From: a phage
Sequence record: NC_135728.1
Length of the DNA stretch: 64,000 nt
Strand: one strand, 5' to 3'
Shown: in pieces, positions 15,826 to 43,566 of the stretch
Position numbering within the stretch: the first letter of the stretch is position 1
How the letters are laid out: every line of letters begins with the position of its first letter
Notes under the pieces: generated by a model
The model's database searches: none
Told to the model about the DNA's origin: nothing
The model's input: only the letters and a program-made list of their open reading frames with translations
Made by a program: the position numbers and the translations under genes

Positions 15826-15942
15826 ATGTCTAAAGGTATTTATAAAATTTGCAAGTGTGGTTGTCGTTGCAATCTTCGTTGGTGCAAGGCACTTGATGAT
15901 TTTATTTGGCATTGCCCTGAATGCGATGCGGAGTACTTATAA
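15826..15942 (+). CDS. small zinc-ribbon protein (38 aa)
   Basis: Below ORF-track cutoff; ATG after aggagg RBS; translation MSKGIYKICKCGCRCNLRWCKALDDFIWHCPECDAEYL carries paired Cys motifs. Confidence 0.35.
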   Translation: MSKGIYKICKCGCRCNLRWCKALDDFIWHCPECDAEYL

Positions 15943-16093
15943 GCATAAGGGGTCGAAATGCGGAAATCTATCAAGAAAATCAAGATAAGATTGTTGGTAC
16001 TGAAGCGTAAGTATAAAAAGTTATACGGCTTCATTAAATGGACTTTTATAGGTTTATCTTGAATAGAAGCACACCACAGAAGAGAGGTTCCTT

Positions 16094-16330
16094 ATGATAG
16101 GTGTCTGTGTAAAAGCTAACAGATGGTTTACATTCGGTAAGGATTACGAAATTATCTTTCATTCGGACAGAGCCACAACAGTAGAAAGCGATGATGGGTG
16201 CTACTGGTTCGTTAGTTACCATGGTGATGGGTATTATAGATCTACTGATTCCAGAGGGGAAGAAGCTGTTTTCTTAGATAGAGCTTATTGTGGGCCTGAA
16301 TATCCCTACCTCAAAGAGGATAAGGAATGA
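16094..16330 (+). CDS. hypothetical protein
   Basis: 78-aa ORF, stop overlaps nrdG start. Confidence 0.4.
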   Translation: MIGVCVKANRWFTFGKDYEIIFHSDRATTVESDDGCYWFVSYHGDGYYRSTDSRGEEAVFLDRAYCGPEYPYLKEDKE

Positions 16331-16800
16331 ATGTTGTTAATATTATAGAGTGTAGCATGGTTGACGGCCCAGGCATTAGGACAACGGTGTTCTGTTCTGG
16401 TTGCCCACATCACTGTGTCGGTTGCCAAAACAAAAGTGTTTGGTCACCAGCTAAAGGTGAACCGTTAACAAATGACACTATTGAGAGTATACTTCACTCT
16501 ATAGAGCCGAAACATATTACTGGCGTTACATTATGCGGTGGCGAACCTTTAGCGCCTTACAATATCGATGGTATGTACTCGATCATTCGCGCTATCCGTG
16601 AACGCTTCGGCAACACAAAAACTATCTGGGTGTACACAGGGTATTTGTTTGAAGAGGTTCCCGATCACATTAAAGATAGTGTCGATTACATTATGGATGG
16701 TAAGTACGAAAAAGATAACCCTACCAAAAAAACCTTCAGAGGTAGTGATAACCAAAGAATGTTTAAAAAGGTAGCAGGCGGTTGGGTTCAGGTTGACTAA
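16327..16800 (+). CDS. nrdG: anaerobic RNR activating enzyme (radical SAM)
   Basis: 157 aa; Cys cluster CSGCPHHCVGC near N-terminus; follows nrdD. Confidence 0.8.
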   Translation: MNVVNIIECSMVDGPGIRTTVFCSGCPHHCVGCQNKSVWSPAKGEPLTNDTIESILHSIEPKHITGVTLCGGEPLAPYNIDGMYSIIRAIRERFGNTKTIWVYTGYLFEEVPDHIKDSVDYIMDGKYEKDNPTKKTFRGSDNQRMFKKVAGGWVQVD

Positions 16801-16803
16801 TTG

Positions 16804-16833
16804 TTGACAAAGCTTTGTTAAGTTGGTTATAAT
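16804..16833 (+). promoter_or_regulatory. sigma70-like promoter TTGACA-N18-TATAAT
   Basis: Perfect -35 and -10 hexamers read directly; followed by aggagg RBS. Confidence 0.55.
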
Positions 16834-16856
16834 TAGGAAAGCAGAGGAGGTGCCAA

Positions 16857-16970
16857 ATGGCTAAAAAAGCCTTGAAGAAGGCGTACAAAAAAGAAATTGC
16901 GCTTGAGCTTAAGAAAAAACACAAGCGTGAAAAGAAACATCATGAGGATGAAGAGGGGGTGCAACAGTGA
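16857..16970 (+). CDS. small highly basic protein (37 aa)
   Basis: Below ORF-track cutoff; ATG after gaggagg RBS and consensus promoter; translation MAKKALKKAYKKEIALELKKKHKREKKHHEDEEGVQQ. Confidence 0.3.
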   Translation: MAKKALKKAYKKEIALELKKKHKREKKHHEDEEGVQQ

Positions 16971-17317
16971 CACAAGAACGTATCGATTTGGCTAATAAGT
17001 TTGTAGATCTCATTTTGCCACGGTTAGTTACTCAACATGCAGACGCTATTTCTACTAATCTTGATGGCTTACGCCTAATGCTGAATCGCACAGATGACCC
17101 TCGTATTCGGGCTGATTTAGAAGCCTCTGCCAACAAACTGGAAAAGTTCTTGCAAGTAGACACGCAAGAAGCCTTACACAAGATTATGGTGGAAGGTTTC
17201 TCTAAAGAATTTACCATTAAAGAGCTTAAGGAGCTGATCCACCAAGAAGAGATGAATATCCGAGTTCAGGCTGTTGCAAGCAGCATGGAAGCGGCTATTG
17301 AAAAACTGTTGCAGTAA
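16967..17317 (+). CDS. hypothetical protein
   Basis: 116-aa ORF, GTG start overlapping upstream stop. Confidence 0.4.
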   Translation: MTQERIDLANKFVDLILPRLVTQHADAISTNLDGLRLMLNRTDDPRIRADLEASANKLEKFLQVDTQEALHKIMVEGFSKEFTIKELKELIHQEEMNIRVQAVASSMEAAIEKLLQ

Positions 17318-17355
17318 AAGTACTTGACACATCTCAATCTGAAAGGAGTCCCAAC

Positions 17356-22268: not shown

Positions 22269-22469
22269 AACTGTTTATACTGTTCTTAAAGAGATTGCGT
22301 TCTACGCAGATCTTAGCCAGGCACCTTTATGGGAAAAGAGCATGTATTTAAAATGGTGCGTTAATTTATGGAGACCTTCCAGTGTTTCAAGCCATGTTTA
22401 TTGAGATGCTATCTGGGGTATTGTTACTGGTAGCCATCTTAGGTGGTGCAGTTCTGATGTATAACTATC

Positions 22470-22673
22470 TTGAAAAAGGAGACAGCAATGGCAAAAAATA
22501 AATCTTTAGAGCAGGCTGAAAACCTTCTCCACGAGCTAGTAAAGGAGTGGAAAGTTGAATACTCAGATTTTAATGCACGAGAGGGTGAAGATTATTGGCC
22601 TACGGAGCGCTCAGAGGGCGAATGGTATCAAGATTTTATAGAGTGGTTATATCAGACGTGTGATGAGGGGTGA
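22470..22673 (+). CDS. hypothetical small acidic protein
   Basis: 67-aa ORF with aggaga RBS. Confidence 0.4.
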   Translation: MKKETAMAKNKSLEQAENLLHELVKEWKVEYSDFNAREGEDYWPTERSEGEWYQDFIEWLYQTCDEG

Positions 22674-26482: not shown

Positions 26483-26619
26483 GGTGCTACAATGGGTGTG
26501 ATTAAGAAATTAGTCCCAAATGTAGAGATTGCATGCTTTGAAATTATGTTTGCAATCGCAGTTGTAGTTAATGTGTTAGGTTACGGCTATTAATATCAAA
26601 TAATTGAGGAGACCTCTAA

Positions 26620-30374: not shown

Positions 30375-30381
30375 TATGGCA

Positions 30382-31112: not shown

Positions 31113-31275
31113 ATCTGGTGCACGATTGCATACCTTGGGTAGTTAATCTCATTACAGAGCGTTTAAGAGCTTCCTACAAACAACTCCATATTTCGAGCGT
31201 AGCGAGAACGCACGTCCGTTTTGACCCAAATCACCATACGCTCGGATTTTAACCAAACCCTCGCGGCGTTTCTGT

Positions 31276-31305
31276 TGACACATTGCCGCTCCAGTGATAG
31301 TATCC
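31276..31305 (+). promoter_or_regulatory. sigma70-like promoter TTGACA-N17-TAGTAT
   Basis: Hexamers read directly upstream of small ORFs at about 31324. Confidence 0.45.
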
Positions 31306-31323
31306 ACACATAGTCTGGAGAAT

Positions 31324-31425
31324 ATGGAGTGCACAATGAAAACATTGTCCGAAGTTTTGGTGGTGATCCTGATGATCATTACGTCCATAGCGGCTGTTGC
31401 CGGAATACTCACGGGTGGAACATGA
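31324..31425 (+). CDS. small hydrophobic peptide (about 33 aa)
   Basis: Below ORF-track cutoff; ATG after ggag RBS; translation MECTMKTLSEVLVVILMIITSIAAVAGILTGGT; stop overlaps next ATG. Confidence 0.3.
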   Translation: MECTMKTLSEVLVVILMIITSIAAVAGILTGGT

Positions 31426-31634
31426 TAAACACACATGCATCTGAAGAGACATCCAAAGGAGTGACTATATGTCCCTTGACTGAGCCAGTGCAAGAGGAAA
31501 ACTTCGATTCTGAAGATTCTCCATCTTTGCTCCAGGTAGATCCTGAGGCTGATGACCTAACGTGGGAAGACATCGTAGATATCTGGTTCTCTATTATGCC
31601 TGAGCACGAAGAGTTCAGGGGTGGTAGACTATGA
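31422..31634 (+). CDS. hypothetical acidic protein
   Basis: Internal ATG of ORF 31329..31634 overlapping upstream stop (ATGA); acidic C-terminus. Confidence 0.35.
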   Translation: MINTHASEETSKGVTICPLTEPVQEENFDSEDSPSLLQVDPEADDLTWEDIVDIWFSIMPEHEEFRGGRL

Positions 31635-31755
31635 AGCACCGAGCCCACACAGGTTCCTCATGCTAAAGCATGGCCTGAAGAGGCAAACGTGTATAATTCC
31701 AGCGTATTGGGACGTATAAAACCCAGTTCACACTCTCATTTCCAGAGGAGATTTC

Positions 31756-31971
31756 ATGAAGATAGAAATATTTGGTGGGGCTGACAACACTCGTGGCCTG
31801 ATTTACCTTGAATTCGATGAATCATACCTGCCAGAGGTGTTAAATATGGACTCTGTTGCTGAGGCTTTGGGAGTAAGTCCTAAAGATCTCCACTCTGGTG
31901 CTGAGATTGATGGTTGGGAGGAGACCATGAACATCGATTTCAGTGAAGTAGGGGATGAACCACTGGACTGA
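31756..31971 (+). CDS. small acidic protein (MKIEIF N-terminus)
   Basis: 71 aa, RBS gaggag; last plus-strand gene before the non-coding region. Confidence 0.45.
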   Translation: MKIEIFGGADNTRGLIYLEFDESYLPEVLNMDSVAEALGVSPKDLHSGAEIDGWEETMNIDFSEVGDEPLD

Positions 31972-32199
31972 CACACAATTAGTTGCCCGGCTAAAGTGCT
32001 GGGAGCACCCATAACACATCTTTCAACTAAATTTCCTACCACCACAATCACTTACCTCCCACACATGACTGTTTGCTTGTTTAGTGAGCAGTCATGCCTT
32101 GACATTCTTGCCTATCCTGATAAAATTAAGTTCTTCTCTTTTCTTTTACCGAGTAATTCGGGTTTTCTGTTCTCTTCGGTTTGAAGGGGTATGGAGATA

Positions 32200-32840
32200 C
32201 ACCTGAGTGAACAGGGTGAACAACCGAACCATTGGCTATGGCATTAGCATGGCGAAGCGGACGGGTGACGAAAGAGGGGCCGGAGGACACCAGTCACTGC
32301 CATATGATATATGGGTGATAACCTGAAGAGTCTGAATAAGTGTTTAAGTACCAGTCAGAGGAAAAGGTGAATGGTAGCCGAAGGGGGAGGGGGGTTACCT
32401 GCTTCTGTAAACATGCATCTGAAATACTACTTTAGATAACCTGAACCTGCCTTTCTGACAAATATTCCCTATTAAACTTGAATTATTTATAGAAAATACC
32501 ACAACACCACTTAAGTCTTTGATTTTACACACAAATCTTACAGATATTAAACCTCTCTATTTAACATACCTGTAACATATACTATACTCCACCTGTCTGA
32601 TCAATTTCCCCAACTACATCCCCATATTTTCCCTGTCTGTACTACCCCTGCCCCGCCGGGAGTCCCGTCATATCTGGCTTTCCAGCAAATATCACACCCA
32701 CAAATATCATCACCTGAAGAGGGTTTCATCCCATAATACATGCCTTACCTGAAGAGCGCTTCATATACCCCGTAAATTTTTTAATTGACCCCCTCCCCGC
32801 CGCCGGAGGGGTTGGCTTTTCCCACACAAACCTGAAGAGT
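32200..32840. repeat. dispersed ACCTGAAGAG repeats in non-coding region
   Basis: ACCTGAAGAG read at about 32322, 32712, 32750 and 32830, with ACCTGA half-sites at about 32205 and 32440. Confidence 0.5.
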
Positions 32841-33394
32841 CAGCCAGAAATATCTGAACAGCCAGTTATACCACGATTTTGTGCTTGTCCTACAGGAGTG
32901 CTTCCCTGTCAGGAGCCGGTAGCGACTGGAGTGCTGCCAGGCGGACGAAATGGGAATACTTCTCATTCTTATAACAATTCTCAAATATCGAGGCAGTGAG
33001 GCAAATTAATAGGTGAGGCCGTTCACACAGTGGCACAACATTTGCAACCTATCTTGTGGGATTGAATGAGAATACCTATCATTGTGAGAACTGTTATCAT
33101 TACGGGCAATTTAACATAATACCCATTATGCGCACCACTGGCGATACATACAGGGATTTATAACATGAGTTACTGTTTACGTATATAACAATTATATTTC
33201 TTACTATTTGTGTGGGATATAGTTAGCAGCCGATAGATTAGATATTGACCTGCAGACTTCCAACCGTCTAGACGTCTAAACGCCCACACAACAAGGTTTA
33301 TACATACATTACTGAATGTAAACAGGGCCGCAAAAATGCTACCATACAAGATTGTAAATTTTTCATGCAGCACTTGACAAAGAGGAGAAAAACT

Positions 33395-33476
33395 TGTCTG
33401 ACACTTTAGACACAATAGTGACATAATATGACACCTTTGACACACTGGACACATTAAACATAATTGACATGCCTGA
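33395..33476. repeat. array of (T/A/G)GACA(C/T) hexamers at about 10-bp spacing
   Basis: tgacac, agacac, tgacat, tgacac, tgacac, ggacac, tgacat read in series in AT-rich context. Confidence 0.5.
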
Positions 33477-33509
33477 CTGTTTACATAGCTAACTATTTAC
33501 TAAAAAATG

Positions 33510-33850
33510 ATAAGCCATGCCATTCGTTTGCATGATAAAGATTAGCAAGTTAATAATCTTTCGCTGGCTATGCCAGGTGACCTTTGGTCACCCCTTCGGG
33601 TGTTTCTATGACATAATATAAAAGCAGGGCAACTATTAGCAGATCATAGTTGCCTTGCTTGTTAACACCCTTGAGACGAAGGCTTTGCCTGAGTTTATGT
33701 CATGATTAACTAAATACAAGGCAACTATGATCTGATTAATAGTTTGCAGACAAACTATCACGGGGGTGATGGTTACTGCTTTTATATTATGTCGCGACTC
33801 CGTCGCGCCATGCCATTCGTTTGCATAGTTGCCTTATTGTTACGAATAAA
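33510..33850. repeat. inverted and direct repeat complex
   Basis: 18-bp perfect inverted repeat GACATAATATAAAAGCAG / CTGCTTTTATATTATGTC (about 33611 and 33777); direct repeat GCCATGCCATTCGTTTGCAT (about 33515 and 33808); palindromes GGTGACCTTTGGTCACC and GGCAACTAT...ATAGTTGCC. Confidence 0.55.
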
Positions 33851-34452
33851 ACAATTGCATTGTTAATGATTTCTTATCTTTCTCTTAGTCATCTAATGAT
33901 TCCAGTCAGTCTAGTAATGTACAGTAAACATTAGACGACTAAAGATTTCCCTGTTTATGATAACTCACCGTGATAATTTCAGGCTGTTTACTAAAAATGT
34001 TGACACCTAAGCTGATTTATGTTATGCAGTTTACACGAATAATTATTTTATGCAGGTATTGACTATTCCGTTATTCTATGGTTGGAATAAATACTTAGCA
34101 GACTATAGAATGGTGAGCGTACGTAAATTCTGAGATCTGGCGGCTATAGTTATACTCGATTTTTCACGTAGAACACGCTTTTGTGAGTGTGTAAGTGTAT
34201 GACTTATAAAGATTTTTAGTTGTTGACAAGATATTGAAGATGTGCATCAGGTTAAATTTTGTGCAATAGCGGCATTACGTGCAATTCTGAGAGAGAAAAC
34301 GGGTAAAAATGGCCCTGCTACCACAAGATGAAAGATTATGCAATAGTTATTTTTATATGTATATTTGTACAGTAGGGTTAATTGCTGGCTTGTTGATTAT
34401 TCCACTTGCCAGGTGGGGCCGTTTGTGGTAGGAGAAATACAGACAAAAAGAA

Positions 34453-34480
34453 AGGGGCCTTTTAAAGCCCCTGATAGTTT
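34453..34480 (-). terminator. rho-independent terminator (minus strand)
   Basis: Minus-strand hairpin AGGGGC-TTTAAAA-GGCCCCT followed by TTCTTTTTGTCT after stop of 34491..34910. Confidence 0.5.
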
Positions 34481-34490
34481 AGTTAAGAAA

Positions 34491-34910
34491 TTATAATGAT
34501 TCGTATATTTCAAAAATCCGATTTGCCAGGTCGTTACGGTAGCGGAATTTTTCCTCACGTTTGATCATCAGATCTTTAAAGCCATATTCTTTAAGCACTT
34601 CATTAACTTTATGGCGGCATACCTTCATATTATCTTGTGCGTCACCAATAAACTTGTTGCTATGGTGCATGGCTTTAATTTCTTCTTCCAGGACCAGGGC
34701 AACTATGCGGACCGGATCAAGCTGATAGGCGGTAACATCAATGCGGCATTGTAAACGGCTTTTTACGTCTGCCACCGGATATACTGCAACCTCTTCCCCG
34801 TCAACATTGACAATAATTAGTTTACCATCGATTTCGAATCCTTTCGCCGCCGGACCGTGACAAAAAGCGTTATCAAAGCTATATGCCGGATTATTAGATT
34901 TAATGTTCAT
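34491..34910 (-). CDS. hypothetical protein
   Basis: 139-aa ORF with agagg RBS and upstream promoter. Confidence 0.5.
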   Translation of the reverse strand: MNIKSNNPAYSFDNAFCHGPAAKGFEIDGKLIIVNVDGEEVAVYPVADVKSRLQCRIDVTAYQLDPVRIVALVLEEEIKAMHHSNKFIGDAQDNMKVCRHKVNEVLKEYGFKDLMIKREEKFRYRNDLANRIFEIYESL

Positions 34911-34959
34911 GGTGTTTTTACCTCTTAGTTAATTTTCTTACAACTTCCCTTCAAAAAAG

Positions 34960-34988
34960 AATATAGCAAAACTGCCGATCCTTGTCAA
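34960..34988 (-). promoter_or_regulatory. sigma70-like promoter TTGACA-N17-TATATT with palindrome over -35
   Basis: Minus-strand hexamers read directly; ATCCTTGGTTGACAAGGAT palindrome spans the -35. Confidence 0.5.
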
Positions 34989-35055
34989 CCAAGGATAGCA
35001 TAATTTTTATGTGATCAAGGGGCTTTATTGCCCCCTGATCGTGCAACTTGTTGTA

Positions 35056-35319
35056 TTATTTGTTACTCATCCAGTTTTCCCAGGCTGCCTGATAATCTGC
35101 CTCACTGCGGCGGATCTCTTCTTGCTCTTCAAGTCGGATCTCTTCTTCCAGGTACCCCAAGATATCGGCTTTCTTGGTCTGGCGTAACATCCAATCATCT
35201 TTTTTACGGGTAAAGATCTTATATGCTTTCTCGCAAACCTCTTTTTTGCTACCTTTTTGGACTTCAAGAACTTTGTAGGCCATGTACTGAACTAGTTTAA
35301 GCTGATCAAGACGTTTCAT
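35056..35319 (-). CDS. hypothetical protein
   Basis: 87-aa ORF with agagg RBS. Confidence 0.45.
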   Translation of the reverse strand: MKRLDQLKLVQYMAYKVLEVQKGSKKEVCEKAYKIFTRKKDDWMLRQTKKADILGYLEEEIRLEEQEEIRRSEADYQAAWENWMSNK

Positions 35320-35379
35320 GATGTTTACCTCTTTGTGTGGTTCTGATTAGTGGGCCTCCCGGCCCGTGTCATTATCTTA

Positions 35380-35652
35380 TTACTTACGGCGGCAGAATTC
35401 AAGCGTTTTTAATTGATAATCTTCCTCAGCCTGGAGTACAACCGCCTCGATCATTTCGTTGGCATTGTTGAAGCCATACCCTTTAGCGAACTCGTCCGCA
35501 CCACCTTCGTGATCATGTTCTGCGTTCATCGCTTCCACAAAATGGAATTCCAAATTGTTGAGGTAGGGGCTTGATGTGCCGTCTTCTTTTTCGATGAGAT
35601 CCCAAATAGCATTAAAACGTGATTCGACTTCTTGATTAATCCAGCTTGACAT
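35380..35652 (-). CDS. hypothetical acidic protein
   Basis: 90-aa ORF; upstream promoter and UTR hairpin. Confidence 0.45.
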   Translation of the reverse strand: MSSWINQEVESRFNAIWDLIEKEDGTSSPYLNNLEFHFVEAMNAEHDHEGGADEFAKGYGFNNANEMIEAVVLQAEEDYQLKTLEFCRRK

Positions 35653-35694
35653 AGTGTTTTCCTCTCTTCTGGTTGTTGTGTGGGCACCTTTGCC

Positions 35695-35730
35695 CCTTCA
35701 AGATAAATGTTACCCCACCCCCTGGCAGAT
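35695..35730 (-). promoter_or_regulatory. promoter TTGACA-N17-TAACAT plus 5' UTR hairpin
   Basis: Minus-strand TTGACATCTGCCAGGGGGTGGGGTAACAT followed by GGGCA-AAGG-TGCCC hairpin and RBS. Confidence 0.4.
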
Positions 35731-35870
35731 GTCAACGGTTTTTATAGTTCTTATATGACAGGCAGGCCTGGTGATTGTCTCCCCCTGTTCCCAAGTGCCG
35801 CCCGTTTAATAAGAATAGCAAAAGGGGCCGAACAAGTCAACCCCAAAATCAGTACCAAAACACTTTTTAT

Positions 35871-36182
35871 TTATACGGTCCGGTCATTGGCCTTTGTCCA
35901 GGACCTGGCGATCCGTTTCCCAGTCACCTGGAACGGAGACTGCATTGTGTGTAGTGAATCCAGCGTAAGGGAGGACCGTTTACGGCGTATCTTCAGGATC
36001 GCCAATGTATTGTCCATCTCACGGCCAGGTCCTGGGCGGTATGGTGTGCCTCCAGCGTTAAGGTTGATGATCTCATGTATTGAGATCCGGCGTTGTTTTG
36101 CTTCCGCATCTTTGAAGATAGCCAGTGGAGGCGCTATGCGTTGCCGATACCAATCTAAAACGGTTGGCGTAATAGCGATCAT
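35871..36182 (-). CDS. hypothetical protein
   Basis: 103-aa ORF whose start overlaps the stop of 36179..36370 (ATGA), consistent with the minus-strand cluster. Confidence 0.4.
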   Translation of the reverse strand: MIAITPTVLDWYRQRIAPPLAIFKDAEAKQRRISIHEIINLNAGGTPYRPGPGREMDNTLAILKIRRKRSSLTLDSLHTMQSPFQVTGKRIARSWTKANDRTV

Positions 36183-36370
36183 ATTTTACCCCCTATGTAG
36201 TCCGGTCGGTTTTTCTCTGTCATGCGTTTAAGCAATTCTTGCATATGGCCTATAGCTTGTAGCGTGTCTTCTTCCAGGCTTGAATCTACATAATCAGGAT
36301 CGTCTATCACCTTTTTATGATTATGATAACGCAGTACCGCCAATACCTTTCTAACTTGTTCAGTATTCAT
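36179..36370 (-). CDS. hypothetical protein
   Basis: 63-aa ORF. Confidence 0.4.
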   Translation of the reverse strand: MNTEQVRKVLAVLRYHNHKKVIDDPDYVDSSLEEDTLQAIGHMQELLKRMTEKNRPDYIGGKI

Positions 36371-36386
36371 TTTACATCGCCCTTAC

Positions 36387-36677
36387 TTATTGTTGGCGGT
36401 TTACGTAAGCTTTACCGTTTACCGTCATCGGCAAATCTTCCAGGCCTGGATCTTCCTTAAGGTCGCGAGCAAGTTCACCGCACCGGATACCCTCGAATCC
36501 GTAGTACTCTGTTGTACCGTCATTAAAAGTTTTAGTGGCAAGGCATAAGCGATAAGTAACCCCGATTCGATTGACGGCATGAATATCCGTTAGATTAACC
36601 TCTTTTGCCAGCTCATTAGCCATTGCAGGCGCACTAAGTCCAACAACCAGGGCAACCACTGCGATCATCTTTTTCAT
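36387..36677 (-). CDS. secreted protein with signal peptide
   Basis: N-terminus MKKMIAVVALVVGLSAPAMA is a classical signal peptide. Confidence 0.5.
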   Translation of the reverse strand: MKKMIAVVALVVGLSAPAMANELAKEVNLTDIHAVNRIGVTYRLCLATKTFNDGTTEYYGFEGIRCGELARDLKEDPGLEDLPMTVNGKAYVNRQQ

Positions 36678-36768
36678 TGTGTCTATCCTCTTTCTGCTAC
36701 GTTTAAGGCGGCGGTAACCGCCTGTTTATGATTTGTTGGTTAATTTTCGGGTATCGGTATAAATTAAA

Positions 36769-36984
36769 CTATGCTGTACGCTCAACTATAACAACGGTTT
36801 GGGGGATCTCCCCTTCCACCACTAGTAAGGCCTTTTTCTGCGTGATAGATATCTTTACCCGTTGCAGCGTGGCGGTGAAGTCTTTCATTTCGTCACGCGG
36901 TGTTTTAGTGCAGTACCAGATCTCAGGCTTGCCGATCTGTAAGTTGCGTAAAAATTCTGTTTTGCCCGTTTTGTTAGTGATCAT
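36769..36984 (-). CDS. hypothetical protein
   Basis: 71-aa ORF. Confidence 0.4.
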   Translation of the reverse strand: MITNKTGKTEFLRNLQIGKPEIWYCTKTPRDEMKDFTATLQRVKISITQKKALLVVEGEIPQTVVIVERTA

Positions 36985-36996
36985 TTGCCAACCTCA

Positions 36997-37098
36997 CCCG
37001 ATACCGTTGGAAGACAAGATCATATTAGACATGGTTGCAATCAGGCCAATACCCAGGGCAATAATCAAGATCACTGCATCGATTAATTTCTGTTTCAT
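36997..37098 (-). CDS. small hydrophobic peptide (about 33 aa)
   Basis: Below ORF-track cutoff; translation MKQKLIDAVILIIALGIGLIATMSNMILSSNGIG; coordinates approximate. Confidence 0.3.
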
Positions 37099-37175
37099 GG
37101 TGTTTATTCTCTTCTGTTAGTAACCTTATTCATGGGGCCGCTACCACAGCCCCAGGGTAAGGCGGCTATGTGCTT

Positions 37176-37421
37176 TTAGTGTTTCATTCCAACCATCGCG
37201 GCACGGATCGCCGTAGTGCTGTACTTGAAGCCGTCCGGGGTCTTATCTTGTCCGGTTAGCTCCAGAAAAAGCATCATATCCCGCGCCGCATCATTACGAT
37301 TAGCATTAGCGTTAATAAAGCCTTGGGCCAACCGGTACAATGACTCATCGTTATTAATCCAAAGGCTTACATTCCAATGAGTTTTGTTTTTGTAACCGTT
37401 ATAACCTTTATTGCTTTTCAT
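37176..37421 (-). CDS. hypothetical protein
   Basis: 81-aa ORF with agaggtaaaca RBS. Confidence 0.45.
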   Translation of the reverse strand: MKSNKGYNGYKNKTHWNVSLWINNDESLYRLAQGFINANANRNDAARDMMLFLELTGQDKTPDGFKYSTTAIRAAMVGMKH

Positions 37422-37513
37422 GGTGTTTACCTCTTCTTTGTTCCGGGGTGGCGGATCATTCTACCACCTTATGTATTATGCTTTGTTAGATGGTTGTTTG
37501 TTGTCAAACTATT

Positions 37514-37693
37514 TTAACGATAATCATCGTACGCTTTATTAACCTGGCGAATATAACATTCAAAAGCTAGATCAATAGATTCATATTCACGGATATACTC
37601 ACCATAGGAAACCACATACATTTCTATAGCTTCCTCATATGCGAGGAGAATAGAATCTAAGCCTACGATCTCGGTCTTTGCAATAATAGCCAT
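37514..37693 (-). CDS. hypothetical protein (59 aa)
   Basis: Just below ORF-track cutoff; ATG after agagga RBS; translation begins MAIIAKTEIVGLDSILLAYEE; coordinates approximate. Confidence 0.4.
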   Translation of the reverse strand: MAIIAKTEIVGLDSILLAYEEAIEMYVVSYGEYIREYESIDLAFECYIRQVNKAYDDYR

Positions 37694-37768
37694 GATTTTT
37701 ATCCTCTTTGTGGTTGGTGGGGCTTGTTGCTCCCTTTGATTTATATATTACAGTTTTATATGGTCATG

Positions 37769-38002
37769 TCAACTATTTTCAAAAAATTTTTCTGCTGTGA
37801 TATTCTTCCCGGTAGGGTTCGCTACTTTCAAAATTCTATCATGCACCGGACGCCCGAAAGAATAAGATCCGTATACAGTAAACCAATAATCACCGTCAGG
37901 CTGTACTATTACCGCCGCATATGGTACGCCTTTTTCGTTTTTGCTGACAAAATAGATCACATTGCCATTAATAGCCTCAGCGCGTTTAATTTGTTCCATC
38001 AT
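37769..38002 (-). CDS. hypothetical protein
   Basis: 77-aa ORF with agagg RBS. Confidence 0.45.
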   Translation of the reverse strand: MMEQIKRAEAINGNVIYFVSKNEKGVPYAAVIVQPDGDYWFTVYGSYSFGRPVHDRILKVANPTGKNITAEKFFENS

Positions 38003-38056
38003 GATGATTTACCTCTCTTTATTTTCATAATTGGGGCCTTTTCGGCCCCGCCAGGT

Positions 38057-38341
38057 TTATTTATTGATAGCGTGCAGCGGGAAAGCTACGCCAGGTTGAT
38101 AAATAACCTTTACAACCTCATCAGGACAAAAGAAGTTGCAGAACTCACCGCAGTAGGCCTCATCCTCTTTCAACTCTTCATTAACATACTCAAAAAAGTA
38201 GTCGATGCTTGGATAATCCTGGCCGGGATTATAGTCAACCATCGTTAATAATAACTCTTGATCATTCCGTAGGATATGCATACCCGCTTTTAAGTATTTT
38301 GCTTCCATTTCTACTACATCGCCAGCGGTAACAATAGCCAT
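38057..38341 (-). CDS. hypothetical protein
   Basis: 94-aa ORF; MAIVTAGDV N-terminus resembles 37514..37693. Confidence 0.45.
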   Translation of the reverse strand: MAIVTAGDVVEMEAKYLKAGMHILRNDQELLLTMVDYNPGQDYPSIDYFFEYVNEELKEDEAYCGEFCNFFCPDEVVKVIYQPGVAFPLHAINK

Positions 38342-38543
38342 GATTTTAACTCCTATCTATCTGGTCAATGATTGGGGGCCTCCCCCCTCGACAACTCTTA
38401 TTATCCATATTGTCGGGAATGATGCAAGTACTTCTTTAAAAATTTTTTAAGCGCCTTAGGGCCGTTGTAACGTCAAAACAATAAAGGCTATGCGATTGCA
38501 TAGCCTGCTAGTGTTTAGGTCGCTGTAGGCCCTGCCTGGGGCC

Positions 38544-38894
38544 TTATTTTGCATTCTTGCCTGTATTGCCGCCACGGTACCAGCGTTTGCGGTGAAAATG
38601 GTAATAATCCCCCTCGGCATTAAACATCAGATGATTTTCAATAACCAGCTTACGAAGGTGGGCCGGATCTTGTTCCATTCTTGCCAGATTCCGGCGGCTG
38701 TTACGTAAACGGATAAATTCCATATTCAGGCCGTTGATTGCAGCATGGATGTTAAAGTAACCACCTTTGAGACGTTCACGCATGGCGTTAAGCTCAACAC
38801 AATATACAGATTTCTCACAAATCAAGGTATTAGCTAGGGCGCGGACCTGGGCAAGGGGGTTAAGCTCATTAAGGTAATATAATTTAACTTTCAT
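38544..38894 (-). CDS. hypothetical protein
   Basis: 116-aa ORF. Confidence 0.45.
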   Translation of the reverse strand: MKVKLYYLNELNPLAQVRALANTLICEKSVYCVELNAMRERLKGGYFNIHAAINGLNMEFIRLRNSRRNLARMEQDPAHLRKLVIENHLMFNAEGDYYHFHRKRWYRGGNTGKNAK

Positions 38895-38911
38895 AAAATC
38901 ACCTGTTGAAA

Positions 38912-39220
38912 TTAGTTTGAGAAAACATCGTTCACAATAGCGATCACAATGCCGCTCACCTTGTCACGGTCAACAATGCACAAATCACCATAGATCATGT
39001 GGTAGTCTGGATGATCTTTCACAGAATAGTCAATAAGTGTTTTCTTGTCATCCAGCTTCGTAACTTCCATTCTCATAACGATATGAGAATCATCAAAGGC
39101 ATTATTCCGAAAAGTCATAGCCTGACCGCCAGGGCACCCAGTGATCTCCACTTCCACACCATCTACGATCTGACCATCAAAGAAATAAAGATTATTAGCC
39201 TGGATAAACATGTCTATCAC
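38912..39220 (-). CDS. hypothetical protein
   Basis: 102-aa ORF downstream of copy 1 of the repeated promoter element. Confidence 0.45.
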   Translation of the reverse strand: MIDMFIQANNLYFFDGQIVDGVEVEITGCPGGQAMTFRNNAFDDSHIVMRMEVTKLDDKKTLIDYSVKDHPDYHMIYGDLCIVDRDKVSGIVIAIVNDVFSN

Positions 39221-39257
39221 TCCTTGTTAACTGCGTGGTATTTTAACAGGGTTTAAA

Positions 39258-39303
39258 TTTACTTTATTGATGGCCCTGGAGTCAAGGCCATCTAAAAATA
39301 AAT
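39258..39303 (-). promoter_or_regulatory. repeated palindromic promoter element, copy 1
   Basis: Minus strand AGATGGCCTTGACTCCAGGGCCATCAATAAAGTAAAT: TTGACT-N18-TAAATT with GATGGCC...GGCCATC palindrome. Confidence 0.45.
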
Positions 39304-39304
39304 T

Positions 39305-39505
39305 TTACAGGCCTACAATCTCTTTGATTCGTTTAACCGCTGCCTCAGCGCCTTGGGGGTAAAAATTATGGTAACCAATCACGCGAGTGATACTAATCGC
39401 CGTTTGATGATCTTCATAGTCGCCCTTGAAGATTTCTTGACCGTCAATCAGCACGGCAATTTTTTCTTCTTTTTTGAAGTTAATAACGCGGATATTGTTG
39501 CTCAT
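39305..39505 (-). CDS. hypothetical protein
   Basis: 66-aa ORF with aggaga RBS. Confidence 0.45.
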   Translation of the reverse strand: MSNNIRVINFKKEEKIAVLIDGQEIFKGDYEDHQTAISITRVIGYHNFYPQGAEAAVKRIKEIVGL

Positions 39506-39654
39506 TTTGTTTCTCCTTTCTGGTTTTTGTGGTGGTGGGGATTAGCTCCCCCCGTTGATTGTTATTATCCACATTCCGGACCGGATTGCAACACCCCGGA
39601 AGAAAATTTTTTTTTTTTTTTAAAGATAGGCCCCCATGATCGGGGGCCGTTATC

Positions 39655-39771
39655 AGTTACTTACAGCGATAAAATACATCCCTACGCCTAACAATATTTC
39701 AAGGGCGATGATCTCAAGCCATACCATAGCACGGCGCGCCTTATCGGTGCGGGGCTTATCCTTGGTTGTCA
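39655..39771 (-). CDS. small hydrophobic peptide (about 38 aa)
   Basis: Below ORF-track cutoff; strong RBS ggagggaagggggag; translation MTTKDKPRTDKARRAMVWLEIIALEILLGVGMYFIAVSN; coordinates approximate. Confidence 0.3.
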
Positions 39772-39792
39772 TCGTCTCCCCCTTCCCTCCTG

Positions 39793-40014
39793 TTAGCAGT
39801 TACGTGGTTTGCAATGGCCCCCAGGAGTATTATCACCACGCACATTGCAAGAAAAATTATCTCTGTCGTTGTTCGATCCATTGTTATAAAATTCCTCAAG
39901 ATCAGGCCTGAAAATAAAGCGTTCGTTATTGAATCCGTCACGCCAGGCGGCTGGCTTCAAATCTTCACTAAAGGGATTAATTAACGTGGCATTATTTAAA
40001 CGGTTGGCCCACAT
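39793..40014 (-). CDS. hypothetical protein
   Basis: ORF track 39793..40032; ATG at 40014 after gagaggaa RBS is the likelier start. Confidence 0.4.
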   Translation of the reverse strand: MWANRLNNATLINPFSEDLKPAAWRDGFNNERFIFRPDLEEFYNNGSNNDRDNFSCNVRGDNTPGGHCKPRNC

Positions 40015-40396
40015 ATTTTCTATTCCTCTCAAATAGGCGATCCGCCTCAGTTAAACATATCTCATGGGCTTGATCTCTGGTTTTAGCCTCATCAAAAACC
40101 TGTTGTGCCAGGCTGCAGCGTAGGGAGACTGGAAGATCGCTATAATAGGCGTTGACAAACGTTTGAGCGTCGTACAGGTCTGAAAATACTTTACCCTTTC
40201 TATTATTCCCCTTGTCAACAATTGCAAGGATAACCAATACAATAGTTGCGACTACCCCCAGGAAAATAGATATAATAAACCATAAAAAGGCGGATCTTCC
40301 CATCTTGCCAGCGATCCAGGCGTTAAACAAGGCAACCAATACAGCCAAAATAATAAATTCCATTCTATGTACCTCTTTTACAGTTCTGATTAACAA
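39992..40396 (-). CDS. membrane protein
   Basis: 134 aa with two TM-like segments (FIILAVLVALFNAWIAG, FLWFIISIFLGVVATIVLVILAIV). Confidence 0.5.
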   Translation of the reverse strand: MLIRTVKEVHRMEFIILAVLVALFNAWIAGKMGRSAFLWFIISIFLGVVATIVLVILAIVDKGNNRKGKVFSDLYDAQTFVNAYYSDLPVSLRCSLAQQVFDEAKTRDQAHEICLTEADRLFERNRKYVGQPFK

Positions 40397-40427
40397 TAAG
40401 GCGGCAAATATGCCGCCTGTTACCTGA

Positions 40428-40808
40428 TTAAAAATTATCGCCGTAAATCTTTCCGCTTTCTACCCATACCACCACGCGAGGCATACTATCCCACACGTCT
40501 TGTTTTAGATTGAGCGCGTGCAATTCTTCGGTGGTGCTCATACCGGGCACGGGCTGATTGTATACTGCAAAACGACCGCCTGCATAATCATAGGCCAGGG
40601 TTAAATCACACTGGATCATCTTTTTGATCATGGCATTAAGCATGGCGTTAGCCGCATATTGATCACGTTTTAAAGGCAACTCTTTGATTAGTTTGCGATA
40701 GTTTTCGATATGGTCGCACACTGTTTCACGTGGAAGATCTTTCATATCCTCGCGAAAGGTAACCAGGTTAAACATAACGGTGTCAATGGCTTTAGTGGTG
40801 CTTTTCAT
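40428..40808 (-). CDS. hypothetical protein
   Basis: 126-aa ORF with agagga RBS. Confidence 0.5.
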   Translation of the reverse strand: MKSTTKAIDTVMFNLVTFREDMKDLPRETVCDHIENYRKLIKELPLKRDQYAANAMLNAMIKKMIQCDLTLAYDYAGGRFAVYNQPVPGMSTTEELHALNLKQDVWDSMPRVVVWVESGKIYGDNF

Positions 40809-40896
40809 GATGTTTTCCTCTTTGTTTTGTGTGGGGCAAACGTCTTGCCCCTTGAGTTTTAATATAGCAGGTTTTTAGGTTATTGCAACACTTTAT

Positions 40897-41520
40897 TTAT
40901 GAAAAAGTCATCTCGCCATATTCATCCACATCAAACCGCCAATCATTGGCCTCGATAAGGCCGATCAGGTTTTCGGTAGTAAATTGTTCAAGATAAGCTT
41001 GCTCCAGGTCTACGTAAACCTTGCGGGATAGCTCCCGTACCGTCTCGGTGATCAGCTCTTCCAGCTCTTCAACTTTGTCCTCTTGCTTGGTGGTCAGGTC
41101 TAGCCAATTAGTATCGATGCACCCTCCTATTGTGTTTTCGTGGTGATAATGGCTAAACGGGATACGTTCAACACTGGCTGATAGTTCGCCATCGTGCATT
41201 GTGCCGAACAAGTGACGAATTGATCGGAACTTGGTCAGGGCCTTTACTTTACGCAAGAATTTTTCTAAATCCACGTTTTCCGCACTGATTGACGCGCCGT
41301 CACCCTGGCACCAAAAGCCTGACCAATGTACTTCGGTATCTTCAAGGCCATACTCTGGAAAAACATATTCTTTATAGTATTCAATTACACTTTCTGCAAA
41401 AAAGTTATCCCCGCTGTGTTCTTCTCTTTCGCGTACCATTTCAATGGCTTTTTCTTTTTGTTCGTCGGTCAGCACGTCGAAAGATAAATTGTAACCTGTG
41501 GTAATGTTAACGGTGGTCAT
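40897..41520 (-). CDS. hypothetical acidic protein
   Basis: 207-aa ORF with aggag RBS, downstream of promoter and UTR hairpin. Confidence 0.5.
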   Translation of the reverse strand: MTTVNITTGYNLSFDVLTDEQKEKAIEMVREREEHSGDNFFAESVIEYYKEYVFPEYGLEDTEVHWSGFWCQGDGASISAENVDLEKFLRKVKALTKFRSIRHLFGTMHDGELSASVERIPFSHYHHENTIGGCIDTNWLDLTTKQEDKVEELEELITETVRELSRKVYVDLEQAYLEQFTTENLIGLIEANDWRFDVDEYGEMTFS

Positions 41521-41578
41521 GATATTTTCTCCTGTTTTCTTTGTTAGTGGCGGGAAGTTTTCCCGCCTATGTTTTTTA

Positions 41579-41606
41579 ATTATACTTATTGAGATTTACT
41601 TGTCAA
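41579..41606 (-). promoter_or_regulatory. sigma70-like promoter TTGACA-N16-TATAAT
   Basis: Minus-strand consensus hexamers; transcript leader contains GGCGGGAAAACTTCCCGCC hairpin (plus coords about 41548-41566). Confidence 0.55.
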
Positions 41607-41856
41607 CACTATTTTTTAAATTATTGTGGCGCAAAATGTTTAAAATCTTCTCAACGTCATCAACACGGCGGCAATTTTTAAACGCTACCAATTGCCCCAT
41701 GATTTTAATCACTGGGCGGCCTTGCCAGTGCCCCTGAAGAAAGCGCGCCTTGACTTTATCGGTGGAACTATCACGCCACCAAATAGCCTTGTTGTTGCAG
41801 TAGTAAAAATTATTCAGGATAACATCAACTTTATCAAAATTTTTTAATTTACGCAT
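41596..41856 (-). CDS. hypothetical protein
   Basis: 86-aa ORF. Confidence 0.45.
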   Translation of the reverse strand: MRKLKNFDKVDVILNNFYYCNNKAIWWRDSSTDKVKARFLQGHWQGRPVIKIMGQLVAFKNCRRVDDVEKILNILRHNNLKNSVDK

Positions 41857-41894
41857 GGCGTTTACTCCTTTCTCTCTTTGATGTGGTTAGTATA

Positions 41895-41925
41895 GCTAAC
41901 CTGTTGACGATGTCAATGATATTTT
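41895..41925 (-). promoter_or_regulatory. sigma70-like promoter TTGACA-N16-TATACT
   Basis: Minus-strand hexamers read directly upstream of 41596..41856. Confidence 0.45.
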
Positions 41926-42035
41926 TAACGCCACAAAACGGCCCTGGGCGATGTTTTCAGGTTAAAGGGGGCGATTGCATAGGTGGGGGGCCTTTTTGGC
42001 ACTTATAGGGCCAACCAGGGGCGCTATTCGTAGGG

Positions 42036-42068
42036 TAGAAATAAAAAGCCCCGCACGATGGCGGGGCG
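42036..42068 (-). terminator. rho-independent terminator (minus strand)
   Basis: Minus-strand GCCCCGCC-ATCGT-GCGGGGC hairpin then TTTTTATTTCT after stop of 42076..42297. Confidence 0.6.
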
Positions 42069-42075
42069 TTGGTTG

Positions 42076-42297
42076 TTAGTTGCCTTTGTGGCGGTATCGT
42101 TCCGCCTGCCGTTCACGTTCCAAAAGGAGGCCCGGCAATTTACGATCATAATGATTTCGCCAGATCTTCCCAAATCTTTTTGGCTTATTCAGTTTATTGT
42201 TACGCTGGCGGCGTTCCGGCAGCTCTTCGGAATCATGAGATCGCTTTACAATTTTCTCAAAATTAATCTTCATATATTCCCCCCTTGCTAACTTCAA
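42076..42297 (-). CDS. hypothetical basic protein
   Basis: 73-aa ORF. Confidence 0.4.
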   Translation of the reverse strand: MKLARGEYMKINFEKIVKRSHDSEELPERRQRNNKLNKPKRFGKIWRNHYDRKLPGLLLERERQAERYRHKGN

Positions 42298-42616
42298 TAT
42301 TGGCCTGAATAGCCCGGATACGGCGCTTTATAACTTCCTGATCTGTGTGATCGTATCCCCAAAAGTCCACAATTTTTGCGCCCCCTGCCTCCAAGCGGTA
42401 TAGTGTTTCCTGCATCTTGTAAGCCGGGATCGGTCGCGGTGTTACTTGGTCACCTTCTTTATTTTTATACTTTATAATATAATCTTCGTTATCGTTGAAT
42501 GTCCAAAATGGATATTCTGCAAGGGCGGTACTTCCTCTTTCCTTTTTATCCTGGATCTTGTTTACAATTAAAGCCGTAGCAATAGCGCCAATAATAAAAC
42601 TAGCCCCGCTGATCAT
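42263..42616 (-). CDS. membrane-anchored protein
   Basis: 117 aa with N-terminal TM (ISGASFIIGAIATALIV). Confidence 0.45.
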   Translation of the reverse strand: MISGASFIIGAIATALIVNKIQDKKERGSTALAEYPFWTFNDNEDYIIKYKNKEGDQVTPRPIPAYKMQETLYRLEAGGAKIVDFWGYDHTDQEVIKRRIRAIQANIEVSKGGIYED

Positions 42617-42690
42617 GTACTTTCTCCTTTCAAGGTGTTAATAAATTATCTTTATAGATGGCCCTGCAGCCAGGACCACCGAAAAAATAA

Positions 42691-42936
42691 CTATTTCACA
42701 ATGCCTACAAAACAGATCCCGCCTTCACCTATATAAGCAATATCGGTCACTTTGTAGTTGGTCAAGATCTGTTTATTTAGATCATTAATAAAATCGGTCA
42801 TTGCGTTGGTGTAGTTGTCTTCCGTATCTAAGGCATAATCCCAGGTGTAAACCTTTTTACGTCCGAAGCCTTTTACCATGATACGGGCGCTTTTGGTGTT
42901 GGTAGGGGCATAATATTTGGTGATTAGTGCTGCCAT
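42691..42936 (-). CDS. hypothetical protein
   Basis: 81-aa ORF downstream of copy 2 of the repeated promoter element. Confidence 0.45.
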   Translation of the reverse strand: MAALITKYYAPTNTKSARIMVKGFGRKKVYTWDYALDTEDNYTNAMTDFINDLNKQILTNYKVTDIAYIGEGGICFVGIVK

Positions 42937-42979
42937 GGTTTTAACTCCTATGCATTAGTTCAGTGTTAACAGTATAAAG

Positions 42980-43026
42980 TTTACTTTATTGATGGCCCTG
43001 GTGTCAAGGCCATCTAAAAATAAACT
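42980..43026 (-). promoter_or_regulatory. repeated palindromic promoter element, copy 2
   Basis: Minus strand AGATGGCCTTGACACCAGGGCCATCAATAAAGTAAACT: TTGACA-N18-TAAACT; identical to copy 3. Confidence 0.45.
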
Positions 43027-43367
43027 TACTCGTTTTCTTCCAGCTCCGCAAGCTCTTCTTTTGCTTCTTCCAACTCTGTCTGCAATTCCTGATATTCTTC
43101 ATCGTCCTCAATATCCAGGCTGTCGATGTAGTCGCTAAATCCGCAGCGGTAAGCGATAGGATCTAGCTCCTTGAGGATACGCGACGGAAGAAAAGAAATG
43201 TTTCCGATCATAATTTCGCCGTAGATCTCGTCCAACCATTCATCATAGTTTTCGTCGTACTTGTCCTCGTCGATTTCAAAGTTATCGATCTTATTCTCAA
43301 GGTCTGCGATCTGTTTTTTCAGGGCAGCGATCTGAATAGCTTTTTCTGCGGCGGTCATAGTAGTCAT
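43026..43367 (-). CDS. hypothetical acidic coiled-coil protein
   Basis: 113-aa ORF with aggaga RBS, downstream of promoter and UTR hairpin. Confidence 0.5.
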   Translation of the reverse strand: MTTMTAAEKAIQIAALKKQIADLENKIDNFEIDEDKYDENYDEWLDEIYGEIMIGNISFLPSRILKELDPIAYRCGFSDYIDSLDIEDDEEYQELQTELEEAKEELAELEENE

Positions 43368-43418
43368 GGTGTTTTTCTCCTTTTGTGTGTTCTGGGAAGT
43401 TTTCCCGTTTATGTGTTT

Positions 43419-43446
43419 AGTATACTGATCTAAGTTAGCTTGTCAA
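43419..43446 (-). promoter_or_regulatory. sigma70-like promoter TTGACA-N16-TATACT
   Basis: Minus-strand hexamers; leader contains CGGGAAAACTTCCCAG hairpin. Confidence 0.5.
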
Positions 43447-43566
43447 TTAAAAGTTTAAGAAAAATTTTGCGACACTGTTGGCGCTACCCATCAACATTTG
43501 CGCCAGGATGTAACCAATGATGCAAACGATAATAGTTACCTTTGTGTGCTGGCGTGTAGTACTCAT
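43447..43566 (-). CDS. small hydrophobic peptide (about 39 aa)
   Basis: Below ORF-track cutoff; RBS aaggggg; translation MSTTRQHTKVTIIVCIIGYILAQMLMGSANSVAKFFLNF; coordinates approximate. Confidence 0.3.
   Translation of the reverse strand: MSTTRQHTKVTIIVCIIGYILAQMLMGSANSVAKFFLNF

Follow-up and report, generated by a model that had tools for sequence, protein, structure and literature searches.

Seven open reading frames shorter than 60 amino acids in an rV5-like Vequintavirus are very probably genuine small genes

A 64,000-nucleotide stretch of phage DNA (sequence record NC_135728.1; the whole stretch is called the window below) raises the question of whether seven open reading frames (ORFs) that fall under the 60-amino-acid (aa) threshold of its ORF list, designated c1 to c7 and located between positions 15,826 and 43,566 (Table 1), are genes. 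The analysis described here indicates that they are very probably bona fide small protein-coding genes which belong to accessory small-gene arrays of an rV5-like Vequintavirus and were missed only through this threshold. An earlier note on this DNA had presented them as missed genes, which holds for the ORF list, where the 60-aa cut-off is the sole reason for their absence, but not for the databases, since they are already found in related GenBank records, in PHROGs and in the 2013 rV5 paper, and are thus known as predicted hypothetical proteins.

Comparison of positions 15000-38000 and 30000-45000 with 50,697 phage records by megablast identified the window as DNA of an rV5-like myovirus of the genus Vequintavirus, an Escherichia coli phage. 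There were ~310 matching records; of the genomes matched, MaxTheCat (Bas57) has 96.1% nucleotide identity, rV5 ~95% and Murica, over the second half, 97.5%. The loci fetched for comparison came from MaxTheCat, rV5, Murica, S127 BCL3, RudolfGeigy, MiataMamis, two IMG/VR contigs and typing phage 14; scans of IMG/VR returned few close relatives.

All seven ORFs proposed in the earlier note are present, and its descriptions of c2 as basic and of c3-c6 as hydrophobic are borne out, the latter by one transmembrane-length segment in each hydropathy profile. Its claim of strong ribosome-binding sites stands for c1, c2 and c5, whose Shine-Dalgarno sequences are AGGAGGT, GAGGAGGTG and AGGAGGG/GGGGGAG, respectively, but the signals are moderate for c6 (AAGGGGG, or AAGGAGG in relatives) and c7 (AGAGGA) and weak for c3 and c4. 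The gaps said to be otherwise empty are occupied in part: in the list of ORFs of at least 60 aa, c1, c3, c4 and c5 are overlain by longer ORFs that run off-frame or antisense. In addition, the combination of ribosome-binding site, ATG and short ORF is not enriched: nine cases were observed, against 10.8±3.2 in 100 dinucleotide-preserving shuffles, when the count covered both strands of 15000-45000 and took in ORFs of 25-59 aa that start with ATG and have 5 or more nucleotides (nt) of Shine-Dalgarno match. The pattern itself is no better than chance, and comparison with relatives has to carry the case for these genes.

Conservation of the reading frames, the check which the earlier note had itself proposed, argues for coding: frame, start and length are kept in all Vequintavirus relatives examined, and synonymous bias is seen in the proposed frame only. 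All fetched relatives share the ATG, the exact length and a purine-rich Shine-Dalgarno region for each of the seven ORFs, with the exception of the first ATG of c3, which is missing from locus L023, where the second ATG is kept. Such retention is seen even at c4, and at c1 in typing phage 14, where the upstream sequence has been replaced, and the indels observed are multiples of three (3 nt in c5, 6 nt and 3 nt in c1). When the phage collection was searched by tblastn, matches to c1, c3, c5 and c6 were found in 121, 113, 118 and 112 records, respectively, all of them rV5-like. The same search gave no match to c2 or c4. The low-complexity filter probably accounts for this, as both are recovered in every fetched Vequintavirus locus when tblastn is run locally without SEG.

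The type of change tolerated within these frames provides the second line of comparative evidence. By classing variable sites in ortholog alignments as synonymous or nonsynonymous in each frame, it was found that c1, c2, c3, c5, c6 and c7 carry a synonymous excess in the proposed frame (Table 1), and that the other two same-strand frames have ratios of nonsynonymous to synonymous change (dN/dS) of 0.5-3.4, none significant. Comparisons over greater distances agree. Between the two allele types of c4, the proportions of synonymous (pS) and nonsynonymous (pN) differences are 0.57-0.66 and 0.28-0.31, in frame 0 only, and c1 and its 41-aa homolog in typing phage 14 differ by pS 0.59 and pN 0.11, with two in-frame indels. 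A six-frame scan then set these values against those of every ORF of 25-59 aa in 15000-45000, 249 in total. With p<0.01 and the ORF's own frame scoring best as the requirements, just 9 of the 249 passed, six of which are c1, c2, c3, c5, c6 and c7, and none of the passing small ORFs lies in the ORF-free stretch at 32-34.5 kb.

Table 1. Positions and properties of the seven small ORFs and of nearby features in the window (syn/nonsyn, variable sites classed as synonymous/nonsynonymous in the proposed frame).
Feature	Coordinates	Strand	Description	Translation	Syn/nonsyn	dN/dS	p	PHROG family (E value)	Names in related genomes
c1	15826-15942	+	38 aa, 7 Cys	MSKGIYKICKCGCRCNLRWCKALDDFIWHCPECDAEYL	11/5	~0.09	7e-6	phrog_20137 (5e-31)	Bas57_0183
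c2	16857-16970	+	37 aa, net charge +6	MAKKALKKAYKKEIALELKKKHKREKKHHEDEEGVQQ	11/5	~0.09	6e-6	phrog_7670 (2e-20)	rV5 ORF118/gp113, Bas57_0179
c3	31324-31425	+	33 aa, hydrophobic	MECTMKTLSEVLVVILMIITSIAAVAGILTGGT	11/4	0.13	1.5e-4	phrog_34195 (5e-21, from residue 5)	Bas57_0135, Murica147
c4	36994-37098	-	34 aa, hydrophobic	MKQKLIDAVILIIALGIGLIATMSNMILSSNGIG	4/5 (within allele type)		0.14	phrog_14631 (2e-22)	rV5 ORF173/gp168, Bas57_0122, Murica158
c7	37514-37693	-	59 aa, net charge -7	MAIIAKTEIVGLDSILLAYEEAIEMYVVSYGEYIREYESIDLAFECYIRQVNKAYDDYR	48/26	0.14	4e-16	phrog_9374 (8e-39)	rv5_gp169/ORF174, Bas57_0120
c5	39653-39772	-	39 aa, hydrophobic	MTTKDKPRTDKARRAMVWLEIIALEILLGVGMYFIAVSN	14/13	0.26	6e-4	phrog_13629 (2e-31)	rv5_gp176/ORF181, Bas57_0114, Murica166
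c6	43447-43566	-	39 aa from ATG (TTG at 43572), hydrophobic	MSTTRQHTKVTIIVCIIGYILAQMLMGSANSVAKFFLNF	21/23	0.28	5e-5	phrog_16391 (2e-31)	rv5_gp188/ORF193, Bas57_0104
Promoter-like site before c1	15766-15795	+	TTGACA-18-CATATT, extended -10 TG, small hairpin, between nrdD stop and c1; consensus match only
Cassette ORF, 34 aa	15958-16062		between c1 and nrdG
Cassette ORF, 78 aa, 'Rtp-like'	16094-16330		between c1 and nrdG
Perfect sigma-70 consensus promoter	16804-16833	+	TTGACA-18-TATAAT, before c2; rV5 annotates P118 at the equivalent place
Promoter-like site before c3	31274-31302	+	TTGACA-17-TAGTAT; -10 conserved in relatives
Promoter-like site before c7	37745-37772	-	TTGACA-16-TAATAT
Intrinsic-terminator-like hairpin	39629-39648	-	8 bp, 7 GC, directly after c5 stop; Murica annotates a terminator equivalently

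Other results weigh against the conclusion that all seven ORFs are genes. The selection test was a count of variable sites in 5-11 genomes rather than a full phylogenetic model, and c4 offers too few changes within an allele type to reach significance (Table 1). The Shine-Dalgarno sequences of c3 (GGAG, 3 nt before the ATG) and c4 (AGAAGAGAA) are weak, and the start of c3 is ambiguous, as both its PHROG profile and the Murica annotation begin at the second Met and L023 lacks the first ATG. The c1 gene is dispensable, because it is missing upstream of nrdG in loci L004 and L005, where NrdG is 82-84% identical, and in other phages, and because a database protein, P0039, is a deletion-fusion of c1 with the 78-aa ORF of Table 1. 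No ribosome profiling (Ribo-seq), mass-spectrometry or functional data for the seven products were found in the searchable literature, and the mass-spectrometry evidence in the accessible text of the 2013 rV5 paper concerns structural proteins throughout. Finally, Pfam and NCBIfam yielded no match for any of the seven, a PDB sequence search of c1 and c7 found none, and Foldseek fold searches of these two produced no characterised match, so statements on the function of the seven products are inference.

One can also ask whether translation of these ORFs serves only to load ribosomes onto their neighbors, such that c1, c2 and c3 would be leader or coupling cistrons for nrdG, a 116-aa gene and a 70-aa gene, respectively, and their peptides would be functionless. 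This proposal, which we consider quite improbable, takes its appeal from gene order: the stop codon of c2 overlaps the GTG of the 116-aa gene (GTGA, 16967-16970), that of c3 overlaps the ATG of the 70-aa gene (ATGA, 31422-31425), that of c1 overlaps the nrdG ATG in five relatives (Murica, RudolfGeigy, S127, L006 and typing phage 14), and c2 and c3 stand immediately behind sigma-70-like promoters. A pure coupling ORF has no need of constraint on its amino acids, however, and dN/dS of c1-c3 is ~0.09-0.13; moreover, the seven Cys residues of c1 are all retained across relatives that carry indels. The c1 gene is also intact in the window, rV5 and MaxTheCat, where a 384-bp cassette (15943-16326), absent from the five relatives listed above, separates it from nrdG and leaves it uncoupled. 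We therefore prefer to regard c1, c2 and c3 as genes in their own right, whose overlapping stop and start codons would couple their translation to that of the next gene.

A further alternative, that these are chance ORFs in non-coding regulatory spacers and owe their conservation to constraint at the nucleotide level or to low divergence within the genus, has very little probability and is already largely refuted by the results above. It would accommodate the outcome of the shuffles, the 90-97% identity of most relatives (which renders amino-acid identity alone uninformative), the placement of a terminator inside c1 in Murica, where c6 is unannotated, and the weak hairpin that lies within c1. 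It would not lead one to expect that a synonymous excess is confined to the proposed frame, that indels stay in frame, or that homologs of c4 and c6 at ~50-65% identity and of c7 at 42-75% identity have the same length, and the small ORFs of the non-coding 32-34.5 kb stretch fail the very test that these genes pass.

Hardly any credence can be given to the remaining idea, that the true genes are longer overlapping ORFs (gp109-type, 63-75 aa, at c1; gp157-type, 101 aa, at c3; antisense ORFs of 130 aa at c4 and 91 aa at c5): rV5 (NC_011041) annotates gp109 and gp157 in those frames and the ORFs are open in the window, but frames +1 and +2 of c1 have dN/dS of 0.9-1.2, the gp157 frame over c3 (frame +2) has mostly nonsynonymous changes (5 synonymous, 10 nonsynonymous), the gp109-type frame can be aligned in one relative only and does not exist where c1 abuts nrdG, and stops or frameshifts arise in relatives in the antisense ORFs of 130, 91, 141, 113 and 67 aa and in the gp157 upstream extension, which an in-frame stop interrupts in both Murica and RudolfGeigy.

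The status of these seven genes in existing databases is uneven. Each has a full-length hmmscan match to a PHROG family (E 2e-20 to 8e-39; Table 1), with six of the seven families labelled 'unknown function' and phrog_20137, that of c1, labelled 'ribonucleotide reductase'. The rV5 and MaxTheCat orthologs share 85-100% amino-acid identity with those of the window at the same positions and in the same order and show allelic differences only, and annotation as hypothetical proteins is inconsistent across Bas57, Bas52, rV5, Murica, S127 and MiataMamis. For example, MaxTheCat has all seven annotated at the same lengths; rV5 has c2, c4 (with a longer start), c5, c6 and c7, with gp109 and gp157 drawn in other frames over c1 and c3; and Murica has c2, c3 (29 aa), c4, c5 and c7 and omits c1 and c6, as do several further records. 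Table S3 of the 2013 rV5 paper lists five of them, namely ORF118 (37 aa), ORF174 (59 aa), ORF173, ORF181 and ORF193, and describes the last three as 'membrane protein, 1 TMD' (one transmembrane domain). The seven ORFs deserve consistent annotation across the ~120 Vequintavirus genomes, where omissions (c1, c6), wrong frames (gp109, gp157) and wrong starts (c3, c4) now occur side by side. They will cause little surprise to phage genomicists, and no long-standing question is opened to test by them. Conserved micro-proteins under selection in rV5-like phages that are used therapeutically are nevertheless reasonable candidates for host-takeover or exclusion factors.

A 60-aa ORF cut-off hides a real fraction of the phage accessory proteome; the same six-frame scan gave at least two more supported transmembrane mini-genes. 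Two ORFs on the + strand which were absent from the list in the earlier note, both hydrophobic from their first possible start and both annotated in relatives, gave a synonymous excess: one of 39 aa at 22382-22501 (14 synonymous, 4 nonsynonymous, p=9e-7) and one of 46 aa at 29662-29802 (17 synonymous, 15 nonsynonymous, p=3e-4). The small coding sequences annotated in Bas57 at the equivalents of 26492-26593, 31118-31252, 31621-31719 and 35732-35821 were weak or unresolved in this test.

The genomic setting of the seven genes provides some insight into how they might be expressed. The first block, on the + strand up to ~32 kb, comprises the end of the nucleotide-metabolism genes (nrdA, nrdB, grx, nrdD, nrdG, phoH, clpP) plus a long run of small genes, and is followed by a 2.5-kb ORF-free stretch and then by a run of small genes on the - strand; there are no tRNA genes in the window. 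Promoter-like sites are enriched in the block (27, against 16.4±4.4 in shuffles), which is consistent with early or middle transcription by the host polymerase, a timing that we infer from sequence. Host RNA polymerase containing sigma-70 would transcribe c2, c3, c6 and c7 directly from consensus-like promoters, and possibly c1 as well, and these would therefore be early or middle genes. If other small early proteins of phages are a guide, each peptide may work by binding or modulating a host or phage partner and not by catalysis. The membrane peptides among them would target inner-membrane proteins, with roles in, for example, superinfection exclusion, counter-defence, transport or lysis timing, and c7 and c2 would target cytoplasmic partners.

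Small single-pass inner-membrane proteins are known among the early or accessory genes that lie behind host-type promoters, as illustrated by the T4 proteins Imm and Sp, which act in superinfection exclusion, and by the T4 antiholin rI. The products of c3-c6 are likewise tiny predicted single-pass proteins, but they are shorter (29-39 aa) and have no sequence or profile similarity to any characterised family. Their 19-residue Kyte-Doolittle maxima (2.95 for c3, 2.56 for c4, 2.15 for c5 and 2.08 for c6) indicate one predicted transmembrane segment each, so that all four are putative single-pass inner-membrane micro-proteins. In the 2013 rV5 paper, TMHMM and Phobius gave '1 TMD' for the orthologs of c4, c5 and c6.

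Within this group, c5 is the last gene of its unit and combines a basic, variable N-terminus with an invariant transmembrane helix; nonsynonymous changes and the 3-nt in-frame indel are found in the N-terminus only, and its basic character should put that end in the cytoplasm. A holin or antiholin role for c5 was considered and rejected, as there is no family match and the sole pointer is proximity to an unverified 'putative holin' annotation of the BASEL collection upstream. In rV5, the endolysin gp89 is described as apart from its own candidate holin, gp129, in the 2013 rV5 paper. The c6 gene lies between promoter-like sites at 43599-43628 and 43419-43446, its ortholog in L023 is 65% identical and of the same length, and many of its 112 tblastn records have 'none' annotated under the match.

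The c4 product has 34 aa and an ATG start in every locus, with a conserved C-terminal motif, ATM(S/A)NMILSS(N/H)GIG. A second allele type, ~50% identical, also of 34 aa and sharing this motif, is present in L022, L024 and MiataMamis, and the allele types occur in both Vequintavirus-like and Phapecoctavirus-like contigs. The locus is mosaic: in the window (36994-37098) and at L022 (5523-5627), L024 (16006-16110) and L028 (22831-22935), each allele type is found with different upstream sequence among close phages, and this looks like cassette-like replacement of a membrane micro-protein.

The 59-residue c7 product is the most widespread of the seven, with matches in 235 phage records by tblastn that include, in addition to rV5-like phages, Phapecoctavirus, Justusliebigvirus, 121Q-like jumbo phages (~75%) and Klebsiella phages K64-1/RaK2 (~43%). 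Its homologs form 33 protein clusters, all but two of which are 57-62 aa long, and those at 42-75% identity keep the length. The protein is acidic and soluble, and AlphaFold2 predicts four strands plus a C-terminal helix with a predicted local distance difference test score (pLDDT) of 95.6. The same fold is predicted for 55-65-aa proteins of diverse phages in BFVD that are likewise uncharacterised (for example, RaK2 H6X4E3, phiIBB-PF7A E9KII2 and ACG-C91 K4FJ78; TM-score 0.75-0.98). The c7 product may represent a compact acidic four-strand-plus-helix domain common to many enterobacterial myoviruses. Resemblance to the single-stranded-DNA-binding fold of PC4/Sub1 was rejected on the basis of Foldseek E values >2 and TM-scores of 0.31-0.46 against the PDB (MoSub1, BPSL1147), together with the net charge of -7. 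An 81-aa gene between c7 and c4 (37176-37421, - strand) has ~85% nucleotide identity to very different phages, among them jumbo phages of the G17/121Q type, a Salmonella jumbo phage and the 42.7-kb record PGT2, which points to recent horizontal exchange; the spread of c7 across phages is like that of this gene, but narrower.

On the + strand, c2 is the first cistron behind a consensus promoter and encodes a Lys-rich basic peptide with an acidic tail, 37 aa long in all loci, which is predicted to be amphipathic. The promoter-like site before c3 is preceded by a terminator-like hairpin near 31085-31112. Translation of c3 more likely begins at the second ATG, at 31336, and gives 29 aa, because residues 2-3 are variable and rV5 and MiataMamis have mutations in the Shine-Dalgarno sequence that precedes the first ATG, in addition to the PHROG, Murica and L023 starts described above.

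The c1 gene, which sits between a complete nrdD gene and nrdG and keeps its AGGAGGT and ATG in all loci, had been labelled a zinc-ribbon peptide in the earlier note. The peptide is Cys-rich, and the CxxC...CPxC pattern is found in divergent relatives, but no zinc-ribbon or rubredoxin profile of Pfam or NCBIfam matches at E up to 1. The second knuckle is CPEC, and the first is CKCGCRC (CxC) in the window and CKHCGC or CKDCGC in relatives; the sequences of divergent relatives, CKHCGCECNLRWC...CPECDAEYL or CKDCGCEC..., display the canonical zinc-ribbon pattern plus three further conserved Cys. An AlphaFold2 model from the single sequence (pLDDT 71) has four short strands, and its top Foldseek matches are zinc modules (the FwdE C-terminus, PHD and RING) that are not significant (E >2). 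When 1.84 billion representatives were scanned exhaustively with HMMER, the family was found in the Vequintavirus clade only, and the other matches were Cys-rich repeat proteins. The c1 product resembles zinc-ribbon and rubredoxin mini-domains in its two Cys knuckles ~15-18 residues apart and in the short beta-hairpins of the model, and it differs from them in the CxC of the window copy, in the three extra conserved Cys and in its restriction to Vequintavirus.

The proximity of c1 to nrdG invites a functional link. The c1 product is a putative small metal-binding, zinc-ribbon-like peptide that would be co-expressed with NrdG, the activase of anaerobic ribonucleotide reductase, and any role with NrdG is only a hypothesis from adjacency and coupling. 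A more specific proposal, which we regard as unlikely, is that c1 serves the phage anaerobic ribonucleotide reductase as a metal-binding accessory factor that had escaped recognition, namely a seven-Cys mini zinc-ribbon or rubredoxin-like protein coupled to the radical S-adenosylmethionine (SAM) activase NrdG that would help to reduce, assemble or protect the activase or NrdD. The PHROG label itself was considered and not adopted, as neither homology to, nor obligatory co-occurrence with, NrdD and NrdG was found, only adjacency to nrdG and coupling; the label of phrog_20137 appears to be carried over from annotation of the neighboring genes. The idea that c1 is a split-off C-terminus of NrdD was rejected as well, because both a zinc site (CLKCG...CPECG) and a glycyl-radical motif (RVSGY) are present in NrdD itself.

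At positions 2721-2978 of L014, a contig of a distant phage whose NrdG is 35% identical, an 85-aa ORF with a CxxC...CPKCNAEY zinc-ribbon pattern and no PHROG or Pfam family lies directly upstream of nrdG, and may represent an analogous arrangement. Homology between this ORF and c1 was rejected as unproven, since just the 8-residue knuckle aligns; if c1 were an accessory factor, the ORF would be an analogous solution. The spacer between nrdD and nrdG, which seems to be a hotspot of insertion, carries in L005 a 212-aa ORF which we take, by eye and with no family check, to resemble an AP2/HNH-type endonuclease. The start of nrdD itself (13639-15762, + strand) varies among annotations, from a 707-aa ORF that begins at a GTG overlapping grx in rV5, Murica and S127 to one of 636 aa in MaxTheCat.

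In the phage collection, ~18-25 records numbered MG0656xx are titled 'Campylobacter phage' and give C. jejuni as the host. Their identity to the rV5-like E. coli genome described here is 92-96%, all the candidates are present in them, and the host label looks doubtful.

The ORF-free stretch between the divergent + and - blocks (32000-34500), the equivalent of which is termed 'non-coding' in the 2013 rV5 paper, has no Rfam match and holds a cluster of repeats, especially at 33400-33850. Copies of the motif AAGGCAACTAT(G) occur several times, both direct and inverted, a direct repeat of 20 nt at 33514 and 33807 is perfect, and perfect 18-nt inverted repeats pair 33610-27 with 33776-93 and 33640-57 with 33717-34. 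This arrangement looks iteron- or operator-like, and the stretch could be an origin or a regulatory hub.

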